A stretch of 64,000 nucleotides of DNA, taken from IMG/VR virus record IMGVR_UViG_3300016476_001378, one strand, 5' to 3'. Positions 3,691-54,257 of the stretch are shown in pieces. Made by a program: the position numbers and the translations under genes. Within the stretch, counting starts at the first letter, position 1; each line of letters begins with the position of its first letter. The DNA comes from a virus (lineage: Duplodnaviria > Caudoviricetes). The notes under the pieces were generated by a model, which searched no databases, was not told the origin of the DNA, and was given only the letters and a program-made list of their open reading frames with translations.

Positions 3691-4176
3691 TTATCGCCCA
3701 ATAATCTTCGCTTTGATGTTTTTGATTGGCACAGGTCCGAATGTTCTAGAATCTTCAGATTCTCCCTCATTGTCACCCAGTACATAAACATATTCTTTAG
3801 GAATTTCTAAAACAAATGCATGTATGCCATATTTAGCCAAAGTTTGTATTTCTCTATCTACATCAGGCAAAGCTGGCATAGGCGAGAATTTTCTTTCACC
3901 CAAATCTGCACAAACTAATTTTTGTCCAGAAGTATAAGCTACTCTCTTTATTATAAATTCCGAATCTTGATCTATAACCACTACATCGCCAACTTGAAAA
4001 TTTCTATCTAGCGAATTTGCAAAAACAATGCTATTCGCATGAAAATTTGGTTCCATTGAAACACCAACTACTTTGGTTATAAAAATTGGTCTAAAACATA
4101 CAAATACACAAGCTAAAATTAAAATGAAAATTTGAATCCCAGTTTTAATTATCTTTTTTTGAGTCTTTTTTATCAT
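3691..4176 (-). CDS. lepB: Signal peptidase I (peptidase S26)
   Basis: N-terminal TM, GVSMEP (Ser), GDVVV, IIKRV (Lys), YVLGDN...SEDSRTFGPV. Confidence 0.92.
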   Translation of the reverse strand: MIKKTQKKIIKTGIQIFILILACVFVCFRPIFITKVVGVSMEPNFHANSIVFANSLDRNFQVGDVVVIDQDSEFIIKRVAYTSGQKLVCADLGERKFSPMPALPDVDREIQTLAKYGIHAFVLEIPKEYVYVLGDNEGESEDSRTFGPVPIKNIKAKIIGR

Positions 4177-39927: not shown

Positions 39928-40473
39928 TTAATTTTTAGGTGCAATAACCATAGACATGGCCTTGCCATCCAAAACTGCTGGCTTTTCTATAATAGATATT
40001 TCTGATGTAGCTTCCACAATCCTGTTAATTAATTTTTCTGCGAATTCTGGATAAGCTATTTCGCGGCCTTTGAACTTAATTAAAATCTTAACTTTGTCTC
40101 CATGTTTGAGAAATTTAATAGCATTATTGACTTTCACTTTAAAGTCATGCTCTTCAATGCTCATGCCAAAGTTTAAAATTTTTAAATCAGATTGCTTGGA
40201 AGAATTATGTAAATCTCTTTGCTTTTTCGATTGTTGATATTTATATTTGCCATAATCAACAATTTTACAAACTGGCGGTGTGGCGGTCGGAGCAATTTCA
40301 ACCAGATCTAAACTAAGCTCCCTTGCCATGTCAAGTGCCTTATTTGCACTTACCACACCCTTTTGCTCACCATTCTCATCAATTAAACGAACTTCTCGCA
40401 GCTTTGGGAGGTTATTGAAAAATCTCAAAATTTGTTCGTTAATTCGTGGTTCTTGCAAATCTCTATCTGTCAT
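39928..40473 (-). CDS. infC: Translation initiation factor IF-3
   Basis: RINEQI...EVRLIDENGEQKGVV...LDLVEIAP...PPVCKIVDYGKYKY...KFLKHGDKVK...FKGRE; ATG start with AAGGA SD. Confidence 0.97.
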   Translation of the reverse strand: MTDRDLQEPRINEQILRFFNNLPKLREVRLIDENGEQKGVVSANKALDMARELSLDLVEIAPTATPPVCKIVDYGKYKYQQSKKQRDLHNSSKQSDLKILNFGMSIEEHDFKVKVNNAIKFLKHGDKVKILIKFKGREIAYPEFAEKLINRIVEATSEISIIEKPAVLDGKAMSMVIAPKN

Positions 40474-44889: not shown

Positions 44890-47800
44890 TCAACTATTTA
44901 ACATGTCTAAATACATTTGTTCAATCATTTTTCTGTAGACTATTCTTAGTTTTTTCTCATGGTCTATTTGCATTTGATTGAATTCGTATTTAAGTTCTCT
45001 TTCTATTCTTTGTCTTAATAAGAACTCATCTATTTCTTTCGCGCTTTCGTTTTCTTTTTGCTTTTCTTGAATCATTTGAATGATCTTTGTAGCATCTATG
45101 AAAACTTTTTCGGGGCCCTTTTCTTGTGATGTTTTAATGGCCTCCAATGTTTCTTTTTGAGCAACCTTGTTTGCTTCTTGCTGTCTTTCTTGAACATTCT
45201 GAATAGTATTTTGTATACTTTCAGTTTCGCGTTCAAGGGCGAATTCTCTATCTTCTTTGATTATAGACTGGATAATCTGATTAATAGGGCTTGAATTTTC
45301 ACTTTCGGCCTCCAAAGGCTGCTCAGTTATAACCTTAACAAGTTCCTGCTGAATCTGCTGCTCTGCTCGTCTAAGATTAGCCCTGTTGTTACCTCTCTCA
45401 TTCTCCAGATTTGCTCTAAATCTTTCTCTTTCTTTTAATAACTCTTGATAAATTATACTTTCAGAACTCAAAGCTTCTTTTATCTGCTGAGTGGTAGCTG
45501 AATCTGTTGGCTGGTCTTTTGGAACTTCAGTTTTCATTAGTGTATCACCACCAACTGTGATGTATTTTACACTTTTGAGCTTTACATTGTTTTCGTCTTC
45601 TTCTTCAGCTTCTGAAGAGCCGCTTGCGCTAACCCCAGTAATAACAGGATTTAAAGGTCTAGGCTGTTGCTGCTCTATTCCCTGATAGTCAAATTGTGTC
45701 AACCCTGAAGCCTCTTGGGTCTGCGGTATAAGTCCTTCGTTTATAATTTGCTCTGAGATTTTTTCTATGTCTCTCGGCTGCAAAGCATTATTTAAATTAA
45801 TTCTACCAGGCTGTTGCACATTGTCTTCAGCGGCATCGTCCGGTCTTGAGGTGCGTCTATTGACTGCAAACAATCTAGGTATGGAAGTTTCGGGACTATC
45901 TGTCCCTGACTCACCAACCTGAGGAGCCTGTGGCAATGACACCTGTTGCAAACTGGTTAAATCTTGCCCTCTGGTATTTCCTTGCCCTTGTTGAATAGTA
46001 GCATCAAAAATACCACCAGTTTGTGCAGATTGCCCAGGAATACTTCCAAAATCATTTTGTTCTGCTTGGCCAGATTGTGTCTGAATAGAAACTTCTTGAA
46101 CTCCAGCAGGTGATAAAATTGTATTTCCAGCTGTACCAGAGCTTAAATTAATTCTATCTCTTCGTCTCTCTTGTGCTTCCTCCTGTGTTGCAAAGCCTGG
46201 CGCTTGACTTTCTGGCAAGGCTTCATAAGTTGTTTGATTTAAATTATCGTTTGCAGAAGATGGCAAAACTTTGCCATTTGAATCAATCTGAGGAGAAACA
46301 TTTATTTGATCTGTAACAGAATAAACTTTAGACTGCTGAGATACTAACTCGGGACTAGATACTGCATCAGTTGTTATTGTACCCTGGACATTCCCATCAG
46401 CATCAAGAGTTTGTCTAGTGTCTGCCTGGGTACCTTGAGCCGTTTGGGCTTCAGGCAAAGATACCATTTCTGGAGAATTAATTCTAGTCGCGAACTGACC
46501 AGATGCTTGTATGGCTTCTGAAATCGCCTGGGAGGCTTCAGCTTGGACAGCTTGAGTTGCCGCTTGAACGGCTTGAGCTGTCACCTGAGATGCTGCTGTT
46601 TCTATTACTTGAGAAGATTCGCTCTGAGCAACCTGAGGTGCGGATAGGTCAGTTCCAGATGTAGCTGATGCTTCTGTACCAGATGCAGCTGATGCTTCTG
46701 CGCCAGGGCGATTTCCCATGTTATTTACGGGCTGGCCAGTTATAGGGGAAACAGAAGCCTCTAAATAGTTTCTTTGTGCATCTGGAGTGGAGCCTTCAAA
46801 ACCTGGAAGTTGCACTTGCTCAACGCCATCAGGCCCCTGTTGATTTACAAATTGTGGGTTAGGCTGCTCTACAAAAACACCATCTTCATTATAATACCCA
46901 GGTGTAGGCTGTGTGTTAGAGCCTAAATTATCGCCAGGAATCTGCCCGGCTCTTTGGATGGAAATTCTTCCACTCTGATTCTGCTCTATTGCATTAAGTG
47001 TTGCTTCTGTTTGCTCTAATGTTTCATCTAATGCCTGAATAGCATCAGATGCCTGTCCTAATCCAGAAGCCTGTGCAAGTTCTTGGTAAGTTAATTGCTT
47101 TAAATCATCAGCTTCTGCTGGGCTTTCAGAGTTAACAATTGATGATTCTAAATTTTGAGCATCTTGAATAGTGTCTCTAATAACAACTCTTGCCGCATCC
47201 TGGACAGTATCAACTAGTCCTTGTGTGGTTTCTTGAATGGACTCACTTGCAACTTGGGCTGCAGTTGTAACAGACTCTTTAATGACACCTTGTATGGTTT
47301 CTCCTGTTACCATTTGAGAAACTTGCTGCATCGAGCCTTCAGCAATTTGCTCAGCTGTTTGTAAAGCACTCTGTGTTACGGCGCGAGAGACATCTTGTGA
47401 AACTTGCTGTATTACATTCTGCCCTACAATCTGTTCTGTTATTTTATCTGCTATGTCTGCGGCGTTTTGAATAACTTCTTGTGCTGCATTAGCCACTGCA
47501 TTCTGTGCTGTTGACTCCAAGACATTTTGGACTACATCCTGAACGGAGTCTACATTGGAATTTTGCAACGCACCCTGAACAGCTCTCTGAGCTGCATCTT
47601 GGGCCGCACTTTCTGCAACACCCTGAGCTGTAGCCTGAGTGGTATTTTGAAGTGTGTTAATAGCCGCATTTTGCGATGCAACTTGATCTGCTATTTGAGC
47701 TGAGCCTTGGTAAAGAACTCTGTTTGCAATTTCTGCTATTTTATTTACTGCTACAGTTGCCCCAATAACATTACCATTGTCATCATAAATAGGCCCATCA

Positions 47801-49029
47801 GAATTATTGACTCTTGCCTTAATATTTTCAACCGCTTCTTCATAAGCTTTCGTGCCTGGTTGTGCATAAAAAGTTGTTCCATCATCATTGTAAAAAACAC
47901 CCGTTGAAACAGATGTCAATAATTTTTGATAAACGGGGCCCTTTAATTCATCTTTAGTCTCAGATTGACCAACCTGCCCAGACTGGGGCTGATTTTGATC
48001 TGTGGCATCAGAAGCCAATCCTAGATTTTGGGCTAAATTTTGTATTCCTCTGCTTACATTTTGGGCCAGACTTTGAAATCCCTGTATTATCCTGGGGCTT
48101 TCTTCTGATCTTTCCGATACAGATTGATTAGGCTTATTGTCTTGTGCAGGAGTTGTAAGGCTTGTTTGATTGACTGTTGTGGTCTGATTACCTAAAATCC
48201 CTTCTTCAGATGTGTTTTCCCCAGTTGTTTCTGCAGCTGACATAGTTGTGCCAGTAACATCATTGATTGATTGCCCTGGCACAGATGGTGATACCGCGCC
48301 TTGATTATTTGGCTGAGCCAGGGTGCTAGTTTGGTTAGCAATTTCTGTGCTCTCAGAAGGATTCGCTTGCGCTCGAGGTTGTGCAACGTCCTGTTGTTCT
48401 GTCGAAATTAATGACTCTACAGTTGTTTGTAAAATAGAATCATTTTCATTAAAAGGGGCCTCTTGATTAAATATTTCCGATTGGCTTGCTTCACCTAATG
48501 GCTGGAATTCAGTTTCTGTTAAGTTGTCGGCATTTGTCTCATTTTCAATTTTGTTAATAAATTCTGGAGACTCCATTGACTGGCCAGGTATGGAACCTAC
48601 TTTACCGAGTGTAACTGCGTTGGACTCTAAATTGCTAAGTTCGTTGCTATTACCTTCACTGATGCTTTGGCCAACACTATCTAAGTCAATGACAACAACT
48701 TCTTCCTCTAGGGGTTGAGAGGACTTGGGTTGGGCTGGCTTGACGTTTGCCCTAAAGGGTTGAAGAGTTGTTTTGTTGCTTGAAATTTCTACAGAATAAG
48801 ACCCACTCTTAACACCAACTTTGCCAAGGTCAATAATTTGACCAGATGTTAATGTTCCATCAAAAGTCCCTGCTACTTTACCAAAGCCATCTACAAATCT
48901 AACTTGGTATGATTCGCCAGGTTCCCCTAAATCCTTACCAGAAAAAGCTACATTGCTGCCTTCTGAGAATTCTATAGAAGAAATTTGAGGTGTATTTTGT
49001 GTGGCTGTTTGATTAACTATATTGTAATC
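44890..49029 (-). CDS. Long Q/E/A/S-rich protein (tape-measure-like or ejected protein); frame open ~150 codons upstream of the tracked ATG, probably expressed as a frameshift fusion with 49017..49670
   Basis: Frame of the 1228-aa ORF continues without a stop from 48576 to about 49050 (DYNIVNQTATQNTPQ...GSIPGQS-MESPEF) with no ATG/GTG/TTG; bounded by TAA just upstream of the A9 run. Confidence 0.75.
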   Translation of the reverse strand, partial: DYNIVNQTATQNTPQISSIEFSEGSNVAFSGKDLGEPGESYQVRFVDGFGKVAGTFDGTLTSGQIIDLGKVGVKSGSYSVEISSNKTTLQPFRANVKPAQPKSSQPLEEEVVVIDLDSVGQSISEGNSNELSNLESNAVTLGKVGSIPGQSMESPEFINKIENETNADNLTETEFQPLGEASQSEIFNQEAPFNENDSILQTTVESLISTEQQDVAQPRAQANPSESTEIANQTSTLAQPNNQGAVSPSVPGQSINDVTGTTMSAAETTGENTSEEGILGNQTTTVNQTSLTTPAQDNKPNQSVSERSEESPRIIQGFQSLAQNVSRGIQNLAQNLGLASDATDQNQPQSGQVGQSETKDELKGPVYQKLLTSVSTGVFYNDDGTTFYAQPGTKAYEEAVENIKARVNNSDGPIYDDNGNVIGATVAVNKIAEIANRVLYQGSAQIADQVASQNAAINTLQNTTQATAQGVAESAAQDAAQRAVQGALQNSNVDSVQDVVQNVLESTAQNAVANAAQEVIQNAADIADKITEQIVGQNVIQQVSQDVSRAVTQSALQTAEQIAEGSMQQVSQMVTGETIQGVIKESVTTAAQVASESIQETTQGLVDTVQDAARVVIRDTIQDAQNLESSIVNSESPAEADDLKQLTYQELAQASGLGQASDAIQALDETLEQTEATLNAIEQNQSGRISIQRAGQIPGDNLGSNTQPTPGYYNEDGVFVEQPNPQFVNQQGPDGVEQVQLPGFEGSTPDAQRNYLEASVSPITGQPVNNMGNRPGAEASAASGTEASATSGTDLSAPQVAQSESSQVIETAASQVTAQAVQAATQAVQAEASQAISEAIQASGQFATRINSPEMVSLPEAQTAQGTQADTRQTLDADGNVQGTITTDAVSSPELVSQQSKVYSVTDQINVSPQIDSNGKVLPSSANDNLNQTTYEALPESQAPGFATQEEAQERRRDRINLSSGTAGNTILSPAGVQEVSIQTQSGQAEQNDFGSIPGQSAQTGGIFDATIQQGQGNTRGQDLTSLQQVSLPQAPQVGESGTDSPETSIPRLFAVNRRTSRPDDAAEDNVQQPGRINLNNALQPRDIEKISEQIINEGLIPQTQEASGLTQFDYQGIEQQQPRPLNPVITGVSASGSSEAEEEDENNVKLKSVKYITVGGDTLMKTEVPKDQPTDSATTQQIKEALSSESIIYQELLKERERFRANLENERGNNRANLRRAEQQIQQELVKVITEQPLEAESENSSPINQIIQSIIKEDREFALERETESIQNTIQNVQERQQEANKVAQKETLEAIKTSQEKGPEKVFIDATKIIQMIQEKQKENESAKEIDEFLLRQRIERELKYEFNQMQIDHEKKLRIVYRKMIEQMYLDMLNS

Positions 49030-49670
49030 TTTTTTTTTACCCCAGAGGGGTTTTTAGACATTGAGTCAGGGACATAAAGCCTTGGAGATTCTCTCATCCT
49101 TTGGCTTGCAGAAATCCTATCTGGATTATTTTCTGATCTATTTTTTGCCTTTAGTTTAGCAGACAATGTAACTTCTGTTGGAACAGACATACCTGTCTTT
49201 TTCATAAGGCCAATAACATTAGGGTCCGCTGCGACAAAGTCATTCATTGCCTCAGATTCAAAGTCATGATAAATTGTATCTTGATTTGACTCATTTTGGA
49301 ACTGGTTGATTTTTGTATATTTTTCTTCTGCTCTAGGATAAGCTATCCCAGCATCAACTTGTTGTTTTTGGTCATTAAAAAGAGGAAATTCTGGCCTCTC
49401 CTTTGATGTAAGTAAAGGCTTGTTATCCTGAGATGAAGGGACATACCTGCGAGTAATTCTCATAGGAGCTCGCCCTAAAGGGGCATCAGGAAACTGCTCA
49501 CTATCTTCATCGACAGTATACATAGTAACAGGCAAGGGTCTGGCATGAAGTGCTGATCCAGAAATAACAGGTTCGTATGCGTCTGTCAAGCCTACTTCCA
49601 ATTGAGAAGCATCAACGTATTCGGATTCGTCAGGTTTAATGATAGATGATAGTGAGAATCTTTTTGCCAT
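49017..49670 (-). CDS. Hypothetical protein; zero-frame product/N-terminal part of the putative fusion
   Basis: 217-aa ORF; TAG four codons after the slippery AAG. Confidence 0.75.
   Translation of the reverse strand: MAKRFSLSSIIKPDESEYVDASQLEVGLTDAYEPVISGSALHARPLPVTMYTVDEDSEQFPDAPLGRAPMRITRRYVPSSQDNKPLLTSKERPEFPLFNDQKQQVDAGIAYPRAEEKYTKINQFQNESNQDTIYHDFESEAMNDFVAADPNVIGLMKKTGMSVPTEVTLSAKLKAKNRSENNPDRISASQRMRESPRLYVPDSMSKNPSGVKKKITI
49029..49051 (-). other. Candidate recoding site: A9 run containing A_AAA_AAG, preceded by ACCCC-TCT-GGGGT mini-hairpin
   Basis: Minus strand AAC CCC TCT GGG GTA AAA AAA AAG ATT ACA ATA TAG; -1 frame ...TAA AAA CCC CTC TGG GGT AAA AAA AAA GAT TAC... Confidence 0.65.
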
Positions 49671-49682
49671 GTTTTTACTTTT

Positions 49683-49724
49683 AAAAAAATAATTTGAACC
49701 ACATATTGCAGTGGTTCAAATTAT
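49683..49724 (-). terminator. Intrinsic terminator-like hairpin
   Basis: 14-bp perfect stem ATAATTTGAACCAC/GTGGTTCAAATTAT, 8-nt loop, followed by a T run on the minus strand. Confidence 0.7.
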
Positions 49725-49728
49725 ACAG

Positions 49729-49950
49729 TTATTTTGGTTCTTCTTTTTTGAACCTATTTGTAGCCTTCTTTTTAAATCTACTTTTTCTATGCTTTGCGGT
49801 ATCTTCTTCAACAGTTAAATCACCATGTTTGGGTTTTTCTTCAACAATTGTTCCCCAGGGCACTGGACTTTTAGACTGTTCCATTAAAGAGTCCCAATAG
49901 GATTTCCATCTAGCATCACTTGTTACTTCTTTATCCATAATTAGCCTCAC
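49729..49950 (-). CDS. Small basic hypothetical protein
   Basis: 73 aa, GTG start overlapping the upstream stop; true start may be the internal ATG after GAGG. Confidence 0.6.
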   Translation of the reverse strand: MRLIMDKEVTSDARWKSYWDSLMEQSKSPVPWGTIVEEKPKHGDLTVEEDTAKHRKSRFKKKATNRFKKEEPK

Positions 49951-53909: not shown

Positions 53910-54257
53910 TTACTTTTTCTTTTTGGAAGAGGGGCCCTTCCATACAGTTTTATCGTACTCTCCGCCAGTCCACAGTTCATTAGATTGGCCTTCTCTGCTA
54001 TTTGGTCCAAATTCTTTTTTGCGTTTGTCCCTAGCATCCTTCATGTAGGCTCCCATGTCTCGCCTACTCTTTTTAACACCAGCGTTTTTCTCACCGAGTG
54101 TTAGACCCATGTGAAAAGATGCCAAACCGGGCACCTTTTTTGTGTCTTTTGAACCACATTCCTCGCAAGCCCACTGTTCTGAGGTTGATTTTTCAAAGGT
54201 TGTAAAAACTTCAAAATCACATTCACAGTCATTGCACATAAAAGAATAAATTGGCAT
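53910..54257 (-). CDS. FmdB-family Zn-ribbon protein
   Basis: MPIYSFMCNDCECDFE...CEECGS pattern; GGAGG SD. Confidence 0.85.
   Translation of the reverse strand: MPIYSFMCNDCECDFEVFTTFEKSTSEQWACEECGSKDTKKVPGLASFHMGLTLGEKNAGVKKSRRDMGAYMKDARDKRKKEFGPNSREGQSNELWTGGEYDKTVWKGPSSKKKK

Follow-up and report, generated by a model that had tools for sequence, protein, structure and literature searches.

Immunoglobulin (Ig)-like C-terminal extensions of phage proteins are produced by programmed frameshifting in T3 gene 10, in the major head protein of Lactobacillus phage A2 and in the cps and tsh genes of the Listeria phages A118, A500 and PSA (Fraser et al. 2006, reviewed in PMC5009743), and among the known phages in-frame and frameshifted relatives with the same Ig-like domains coexist (PMC5009743). 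A reading frame can also be changed during transcription: runs of nine A or T cause efficient slippage of bacterial RNA polymerase (PMC5009743), and in the Roseiflexus IS630 transposase the slippage is stimulated by a nascent-RNA hairpin located directly 5' of the motif (Penno et al. 2015, reviewed in PMC5009743). Surveys of the PRFect type list mostly tail chaperones, with an occasional capsid, lysin or other gene (PMC10885494), and in the literature we found no report of a frame switch in jumbo-phage genes of the kind considered here. In this work, we analyze a stretch of 64,000 nucleotides (nt) from a tailed virus (record IMGVR_UViG_3300016476_001378; hereafter the window), in which an open reading frame (ORF) for 217 amino acids (aa) and a far longer frame that has no start codon at its beginning meet at a run of nine A residues (A9). 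The two are very probably connected by a genuine programmed one-base frame switch, whether it is the polymerase or the ribosome that slips, and the gene is predicted to make both the 217-aa product and a 1,593-aa fusion.

All positions given below refer to the minus strand of the window, and those that an original prediction, made from the letters of this DNA alone, had assigned to the 217-aa ORF, the A9 run, the upstream closure of the shifted frame and the zero-frame stop four codons past the AAG proved to be correct. The short frame (ORF1, or P0001; 49670..49017) encodes a conserved N-terminal module (N-module); this zero-frame product has the C-terminus ...SGVKKKITI*, and the 3' end of the ORF reads GGG GTA AAA AAA AAG ATT ACA ATA TAG. 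The A9 run (49038..49030), the site of the putative frame switch, stands in the phase GTA AAA AAA AAG and the same site holds the heptamer A_AAA_AAG (49035-49029) in the zero-frame X_XXY_YYZ phase. The -1 frame (P0002) is closed by a TAA at 49056-49054, opens 15 nt 5' of the A9 run, and stays open for 1,387 codons after the TAA, up to the stop at 44890-44892. Since this TAA on one side and the zero-frame TAG (49017..49019) on the other delimit the region in which both frames are open, the frame change is confined to an overlap of 37 nt. The claim that the -1 frame contains no ATG, GTG or TTG up to the run was also correct: the earliest is the ATG at 48576, the start of the "1228-aa ORF" used by gene finders, and the start-less segment ahead of it (48577..49029) appears as a gap between genes. 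From the run onward, the whole -1-frame part (44890..49038) comprises 1,382 codons and a stop. An mRNA with ten A residues (A10) and a tandem -1 slip of tRNAs on A_AAA_AAG predict the same junction, ...G-V-K-K-K-D-Y-N-I-V..., and residues 1-214 of ORF1 followed by another 1,379 would give the fusion of 1,593 aa.

The case for a frame switch is above all comparative. Homologues of the long frame and of ORF1 were traced to their DNA and the junctions were read there, which yielded 27 readable junctions from independent ENA, JGI, Logan and NCBI assemblies. They fall into tiers of six close genomes, 19 loci at ~60% identity (the contig scan that gave this tier used the tighter alignment A5) and the distant L009, L010, L011/L012 and L013, and the set as a whole covers 25-97% protein identity and 28-67% GC. 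The split is kept in all 27 junctions, a short ORF ending a few codons past an A run and a long -1 frame opening there. The run is exactly A9 in 26 of them and A8 in the remaining one (L009), AAG follows it directly in 26 of the 27, and an in-frame run length was found in none of these assembled junctions. Every one of the 19 loci of the ~60% tier (NCBI and JGI assemblies) has exactly A9 in the phase NNA AAA AAA AAG ATT, and in 18 of them the zero-frame stop, TAG or TGA, is at the same position. Four distant lineages at 25-30% protein identity also keep the split, with ATA-A9-G in L010 (45% GC), GTA-A9-G in L011/L012 (60% GC), TTA-A9-C in L013 (67% GC) and, in L009, GCT-A8-G with the same frame relation as at the A9 loci. 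The overlap of the two frames varies from 22 to 172 nt (mostly 25-49 nt), and the A run, which lies inside every one of the 18 distinct overlaps, is the only element common to all of them. The only long open alternative frame is -1; a fusion in the +1 frame was rejected, the +1 frames being closed within 4-163 codons. The relatives are neither A10 at this site nor uniformly in-frame genes devoid of a slippery sequence, and the frame break and motif proposed for a single genome recur throughout the set.

The protein and nucleotide alignments point in the same direction. More than 40 clusters of short-form proteins end in [V/L/A]KKK plus 2-7 residues; ORF1 is exactly 217 aa long in the close relatives and almost uniformly so in a 29-member cluster at 90%, and 61 columns of the N-module are invariant among 24 sequences at ~60% identity. 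In a 1,113-nt alignment of the six close genomes, where synonymous sites are near saturation, the longest invariant block is the 34-nt CCCCTCTGGGGTAAAAAAAAAGATTACAATATAG, and the end of ORF1 has 12 consecutive invariant third positions, compared with at most 8 elsewhere in ORF1 (P ~0.017). The run is, moreover, exceptional within its own genome. It is the sole A/T run of at least 8 on either strand of the window (37.6% GC), in which dinucleotide-preserving shuffles lead one to expect ~10 matches to A9, with at least one in all 100 shuffles. Under a first-order model, 31 A/T runs of 7 and 10 of 8 are expected in the window, as against 7 and 0 observed. This genome avoids long A/T runs except at the frame-switch site.

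The substitution pattern of the start-less segment is that expected of coding sequence under purifying selection in the -1 frame. Over codons 9-154 of the gap, the variable sites are distributed 41/28/111 over the three -1-frame codon positions, and the pairwise ratio of nonsynonymous to synonymous substitution (dN/dS) in this frame is 0.06-0.18, with a pairwise dS of ~0.6-1.3 except for the closest pair (0.17). The original prediction that the apparent 440-nt gap (48,577-49,016) is coding was thereby borne out. Conservation of the protein starts right at the run, with KKKD[YSF][NDS][ILS]. Among the relatives examined, there is no conserved -1-frame ATG, GTG or TTG before +462; their first possible -1-frame start codons are not ATG and are scattered from +81 to +582 nt, and this scatter accounts for the differing lengths (1,004-1,331 aa) that gene callers assign to the long frame.

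An exhaustive search also recovered forms in which the two parts are fused without any frame switch. The clearest is P0013, a protein of 621 aa represented by three member sequences on four contigs from two sources: its N-module stands in one uninterrupted ORF (E = 7.5e-21 to P0001), it too has an Ig-like region, its C-terminus aligns end to end with that of P0002 (E = 2e-9), and at the junction it has no Lys run. P0021 (1,072 aa) appears to be a second, weaker case of in-frame fusion, with a match to the N-module at residues 11-187 (E = 8.8e-4, 30% identity) and, downstream of it, in-frame repeats that weakly resemble the Ig-like domain (E = 0.011). A profile search aimed at longer, fused forms recovered no such protein; the search itself rates this negative as weak evidence. 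Because the in-frame relatives do without the Lys run, this run appears to serve the frame switch and not the protein. Taken together, the conserved split and run, the coding constraint on the -1 frame, the more than 40 clusters ending in KKK and the in-frame fusion argue that the two ORFs are, as originally proposed, a single gene joined by a one-base change at A9/A_AAA_AAG; the same comparative evidence supports its two predicted products, the 217-aa protein and a fusion of ~1,590 aa. A distant relative of the N-module, P0019 (226 aa, on an ENA contig of 3,038 bp), ends in ...TGERLRA without a Lys run; it may be recoded at a different site or be a form that stands by itself.

Explanations that dispense with a programmed switch have to be weighed against this evidence. 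Homopolymer tracts of nine are hypermutable, and this, with the avoidance of long A/T runs elsewhere in the window, would suit a phase variation at the DNA level, in which A9 is a contingency locus and replication slippage creates a subpopulation of A10 genomes that alone makes the long protein. Such a scheme is nonetheless improbable, since not one assembled junction has the in-frame length, the 29-member ORF1 cluster is so uniform, and the strong purifying selection on the -1 frame needs a regular expression that rare DNA variants could hardly provide; furthermore, the lineages in which an in-frame gene has been fixed (P0013) have lost the Lys run entirely. Less probable still is the existence of two separate genes, the long frame being started at a non-canonical codon in the gap, perhaps with the aid of a phage-encoded translation initiation factor, IF3. 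A phage IF3 gene does lie two genes downstream and the gene callers place GTG or TTG starts in the gap of some relatives, but none of these scattered candidate starts is conserved, both the coding constraint and the conservation of the protein begin right at the run, P0013 joins both parts, and independent initiation leaves unexplained why, in more than 40 clusters, the ORF1 stop follows the Lys run at a distance of 3-8 codons. The least probable explanation of all is an artefact or gene decay, that is, a single in-frame gene disrupted by a homopolymer error of sequencing or assembly, a pseudogene, or the reading of a stop codon as sense. Tracts of A9 are classic sites of indel errors, and ORF1 ends in TAG, a codon that some phages have reassigned. 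Against this, the same run length recurs in 26 junctions in ENA, JGI, Logan and NCBI assemblies of different samples and the same frame relation holds at A8; a systematic one-base under-call across samples, pipelines and lineages is, on this evidence, not credible, and both halves of the gene are under purifying selection. The reading of TAG as sense was rejected, the stop being TGA in other lineages and the substitutions fitting the -1 frame and not a read-through of the zero frame.

Which machine slips, and in what ratio the two products are made, can only be inferred from the sequence. In the mechanism that we propose, standard decoding would give the 217-aa N-module, ending four codons past the run, and some expression events would continue in the -1 frame to give the 1,593-aa protein, in which the N-module is followed by an Ig-like domain, then by a long, variable spacer of low complexity and lastly by a conserved domain at the C-terminus. 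The change of frame would occur mainly at transcription, when the bacterial-type RNA polymerase slips on A9 and adds one A, and the resulting A10 mRNA would be read V-K-K-K-D-Y-N; in many lineages, a small GC hairpin in the nascent RNA right behind the run may assist the slippage, and the ribosome, by slipping -1 on the A_AAA_AAG contained in the site, probably contributes to the yield as well. That polymerase slippage from A9 to A10 is the main route is a proposition on which our own judgment is evenly divided, the sequence somewhat favouring it over ribosomal -1 shifting on A_AAA_AAG, or suggesting that the two act together. The polymerase is favoured because the ninth A is kept, because L013 has AAC, because runs of at least 8 are avoided, and because there is a hairpin on the 5' side of the run and no suitable structure downstream of it. 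The ninth A lies outside A_AAA_AAG, in the third position of a codon for Val, Ala, Leu or Ile, and is kept in nine of ten lineages although the preceding amino acid changes, even at 60% and 67% GC, where this entails the rare codons GTA and TTA (joint p ~7e-6, from the codon usage of each lineage). In L013 the run is followed by C (A9-C), so that the site reads A_AAA_AAA/A_AAA_AAC and lacks the shift-prone AAG. The window accommodates three further in-phase A_AAA_AAG heptamers, yet no other run of at least 8. These three heptamers lie inside ORFs at 3691-4176 and 53910-54257, two of them within the first 25 nt of a 161-aa ORF.

The surroundings of the site bear on the same question. As the original prediction had remarked, no strong 3' stimulator is visible: analysis of the relatives with RNAalifold found no conserved stem-loop or pseudoknot 5-9 nt past the heptamer, and no downstream structure has a suitable spacer or shows covariation. 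What is present is a weak AU-rich hairpin of doubtful significance, GAUUAC..GUUAAUC (49011..49029), which begins at the G of AAG and so has a 0-nt spacer, and a distant helix, neither of them with compensatory changes; the pairs of the hairpin are all invariant and thus provide no covariation, and a ribosomal stimulator of the classical kind would need a longer spacer. The site matches no Rfam frameshift element. A Shine-Dalgarno-like element 10-14 nt before the heptamer was not found, the only G-rich element being a GGGG that lies 4 nt before the heptamer, in some lineages only. On the 5' side of the run there is indeed the mini-hairpin that had been noted, of the form (A/G/C)CCCC-UCU-GGGGU and in the window ACCCC-TCT-GGGGT (49051-49039), with its 3' arm abutting the A9 run. 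In most lineages a hairpin is predicted that ends, with its 3' arm, 0-3 nt short of the run, and in two subgroups the pairing of a C-run with a G-run is kept, directly abutting (0 nt), in a different codon phase and with different amino acids (AAC CCC TCT GGG GTA versus ACC CAA AAT GGG GTA). Such a hairpin is a possible nascent-RNA stimulator of polymerase slippage; no hairpin placed immediately 5' of a shift site is known to stimulate -1 frameshifting in bacteria, which weighs against a ribosomal route.

Several considerations tell against giving the polymerase the leading role. Each of the features cited in its favour can also be read in ribosomal terms: two heptamers, A_AAA_AAA and A_AAA_AAG, overlap within A9G, and the ninth A would permit the E-site tRNA to re-pair. 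The depletion of long A/T runs may reflect slippage in replication and not in transcription. The run of L009 is only A8, and the upstream hairpin, which is short (4-5 bp) and without strict covariation, is absent or displaced (8-10 nt away) in L010, L016 and L019. The same recoding with the same products could be purely or mainly ribosomal, by tandem -1 slippage of Lys tRNAs on A_AAA_AAG, and to this alternative we attach an appreciable likelihood, short of an even chance. Every locus has the heptamer in the correct X_XXY_YYZ phase, and even the A8 of L009 retains it; AAG follows the run in all but one junction, the zero-frame stop lies close behind the site, as it does at many programmed -1 sites, and in E. 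coli no heptamer is known that shifts more readily than A_AAA_AAG (PMC5009743). What this route leaves unaccounted for is the conservation of a ninth A that the heptamer does not need, the AAC of L013, and the tolerance in the window of three further in-phase heptamers but not of runs of at least 8; it also has to do without a conserved, covarying downstream stimulator at a spacing of 5-9 nt and without a Shine-Dalgarno-like element 10-14 nt upstream. No tRNA gene occurs in the 64-kb window. Returning to slippage by the polymerase, a more elaborate version can be imagined, in which the nascent hairpin behind A9, in a terminator-like layout, forms a dedicated device that sets the rate of A addition by the late-gene polymerase and thereby fixes the number of copies of a conserved virion subunit that bear a giant, length-variable, Ig-tipped tether. 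We consider this rather unlikely; if true, the site would provide the first example in a phage structural gene of transcriptional slippage aided by a hairpin, and one that is conserved across genomes of 28% to 67% GC.

The architecture of the two products gives some indication of their role. The AlphaFold2 (AF2) model of the N-module is of low confidence, with a predicted local distance difference test (pLDDT) score of 58 and a few short helices; that a segment so poorly modelled is so highly conserved suggests that it needs a partner in order to fold. The first folded domain after the switch (48739..48981; residues ~20-100 from the Lys run) is predicted to be an Ig-like beta-sandwich, with an AF2 pLDDT of 85-92 (16-sequence alignment); its Foldseek matches are generic sandwiches of the Ig-like, CnaB and filamin types, together with accessory domains from baseplate and minor-tail proteins of phages. 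It is conserved in L009 and L013 as well as in the nearer tiers, L010 being the exception. The middle region that follows (45649..48738) is rich in Q/A/S/T/E and hypervariable in both length and sequence, with no BLASTP similarity between tiers, and it is the length of this region that drives the spread of the total -1 product, 250-1,382 residues across the family. The protein ends in a conserved C-terminal domain of ~200-250 aa (44893..45648; ...MYLDMLNS), which finds the 60% identity tier by BLASTP with E of 1e-30 to 1e-46 and whose '[L/I]NS' end is kept in all tiers, including L010 and L011. In L010 (L010:3883-8733) the -1-frame product is only ~250 residues long, without a BLASTP match to the Ig-like domain, and the next gene is a separate ORF of 1,616 aa, which implies that the giant middle region is either dispensable or relocated. 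The -1 frame of L027 (L027:3142-6593) stops after 575 codons, compared with 1,092-1,093 in the near-identical L024-L026, and is either a natural truncated variant or an assembly error.

Neither half of the gene, nor most of its neighbours, has a match in Pfam or PHROG; sequence searches of the PDB gave no match for the gene or for the neighbours searched, and the ESM Atlas gave no usable match for ORF1 and only sub-threshold leads for the neighbouring 646-aa protein. The suggestion in the original prediction that the long product might be tape-measure-like or ejected was not supported. A tape measure was rejected since neither Pfam, PHROG nor the PDB sequences provided a match to such a family, the long frame measures anything from 1,052 to 1,382 codons in genomes whose DNA is 83-96% identical across the locus, and its first domain is Ig-like. 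A tail chaperone of the lambda G/GT type was rejected as well, there being no Pfam or PHROG match and ORF2, the -1-frame part, having these same 1,052-1,382 codons in the close group. Our preferred picture is that the N-module would hold a fixed site in the virion or in an assembly intermediate, and that only the recoded fraction of it would carry the long Ig-tipped tether.

The window is part of a jumbo phage genome, and the exact ORF1 sequence sits on a 248-kb contig. Around the gene, giant minus-strand genes extend over ~45 kb, and among them they encode Ig-type domains, an endolysin-like domain and proteases; it is on this gene context that the assignment of the N-module to the virion rests, the module itself having no family match and a low-confidence model. 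The order of a ~650-714-aa gene, a small ORF, the frame-switch gene and a ~1,450-1,616-aa gene is kept out to the distant loci. In the window, the two large neighbours (646 aa upstream and 1,454 aa downstream) have no match, and no tube or tape-measure gene was recognised. The complete interpretation, namely that this is one gene for a virion-module protein of an uncultured freshwater jumbo phage which is recoded mainly by polymerase slippage at A9, is one that we would accept or reject with equal readiness. The small conserved ORF between the 646-aa gene and ORF1 (49729-49950; e.g., L007:2014-2223) encodes ~69 aa and is always present in the close tier; its counterpart in L009 has 101 aa. A 14-bp terminator-like hairpin followed by TTTTTT (49689-49724) ends 19 nt before the ATG of ORF1, and there is no clear Shine-Dalgarno sequence between the two. 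The IF3 gene mentioned above (39928-40473) is full-length, with both IF3_N and IF3_C (E ~1e-30), and is flanked by giant virion-type genes.

Although both candidate mechanisms and the theme of Ig-like extensions were already established, this locus adds to them in several respects. It belongs to an unannotated gene family that has no match in the cultured-phage collection INPHARED (DNA search and tblastn with ORF1) or in IMG/VR (scans with ORF1, two family alignments and two in-frame relatives). The part added by recoding is five to six times the size of the base protein, and the exact A9 is among the more deeply conserved of such recoding signals, being kept at 25% protein identity and in DNA of 67% GC. 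In all the assemblies examined, gene callers break the gene in two, assign it spurious GTG or TTG starts and miss as many as ~150 codons; as a consequence, a whole family of giant proteins of uncultured jumbo phages is mis-annotated in the public data. The in-frame relatives are natural controls, and the combined A9/A_AAA_AAG should be a good system in which to measure the respective shares of polymerase and ribosome and the tuning of slippage by a 5' hairpin. The family suggests that these phages display a sub-stoichiometric, length-variable and Ig-tipped extension on a conserved virion subunit.

Comparison with other recoded genes shows a number of shared traits. In the OrfA/OrfAB genes of the IS3 family and in retroviral Gag/Gag-Pol, as here, the large downstream part lacks its own start and is expressed solely through a -1 fusion, which fixes the ratio of the short to the long form; those fusions, however, are enzymes (transposase, polymerase) with downstream pseudoknots or stem-loops, whereas the present product is non-enzymatic, of low complexity and structural in type, and has no such stimulator. 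The lambda G/GT pair resembles this gene in having a -1 change near the end of a small ORF amid large virion genes, conserved across divergent phages; it differs in that its second ORF has ~150 codons and not 1,380, and our gene matches no chaperone family. The two dnaX genes are instructive because the site in this phage unites the motifs of both, the run of nine on which slippage occurs in Thermus thermophilus and the A_AAA_AAG of the E. coli -1 shift. Programmed transcriptional slippage is also known from Shigella mxiE and from IS elements. In dnaX too, two products share an N-terminus and early termination after the site gives the short one. There, however, it is the slipped or shifted product that is short (gamma) and here it is the long one, and the upstream Shine-Dalgarno-like element and downstream stem-loop of E. 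coli dnaX were not found here. With the Roseiflexus IS630 transposase, our locus has in common a GC hairpin that abuts the 5' side of the run in a terminator-like manner and a functional long product that needs the slip; there, the motif is T5C5, one C is deleted and the dependence on the hairpin is strict, whereas in our case A9 slips unaided, the slip has to insert a base, and the short hairpin is not shared by every lineage.

The closest parallel is with the Ig-like extensions of the T3, A2 and A118 type, from which the present gene differs chiefly in scale and in the nature of its parts. Here the extension has 1,050-1,380 residues, five to six times the length of the base protein, and includes a hypervariable spacer and a second conserved domain; the A9 is invariant down to 25% protein identity, and the base protein is not recognisable as a capsid or tail-tube protein. 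In both, nevertheless, a short and a long form come from one gene of a structural module, the frame changes at the 3' end of the short form, the first domain to be added is Ig-like, and in-frame relatives coexist with frameshifted ones. By analogy, the architecture of this gene and the coexistence of its in-frame relatives match the known pattern of frameshifted Ig-like extensions of phage coat and tail proteins.

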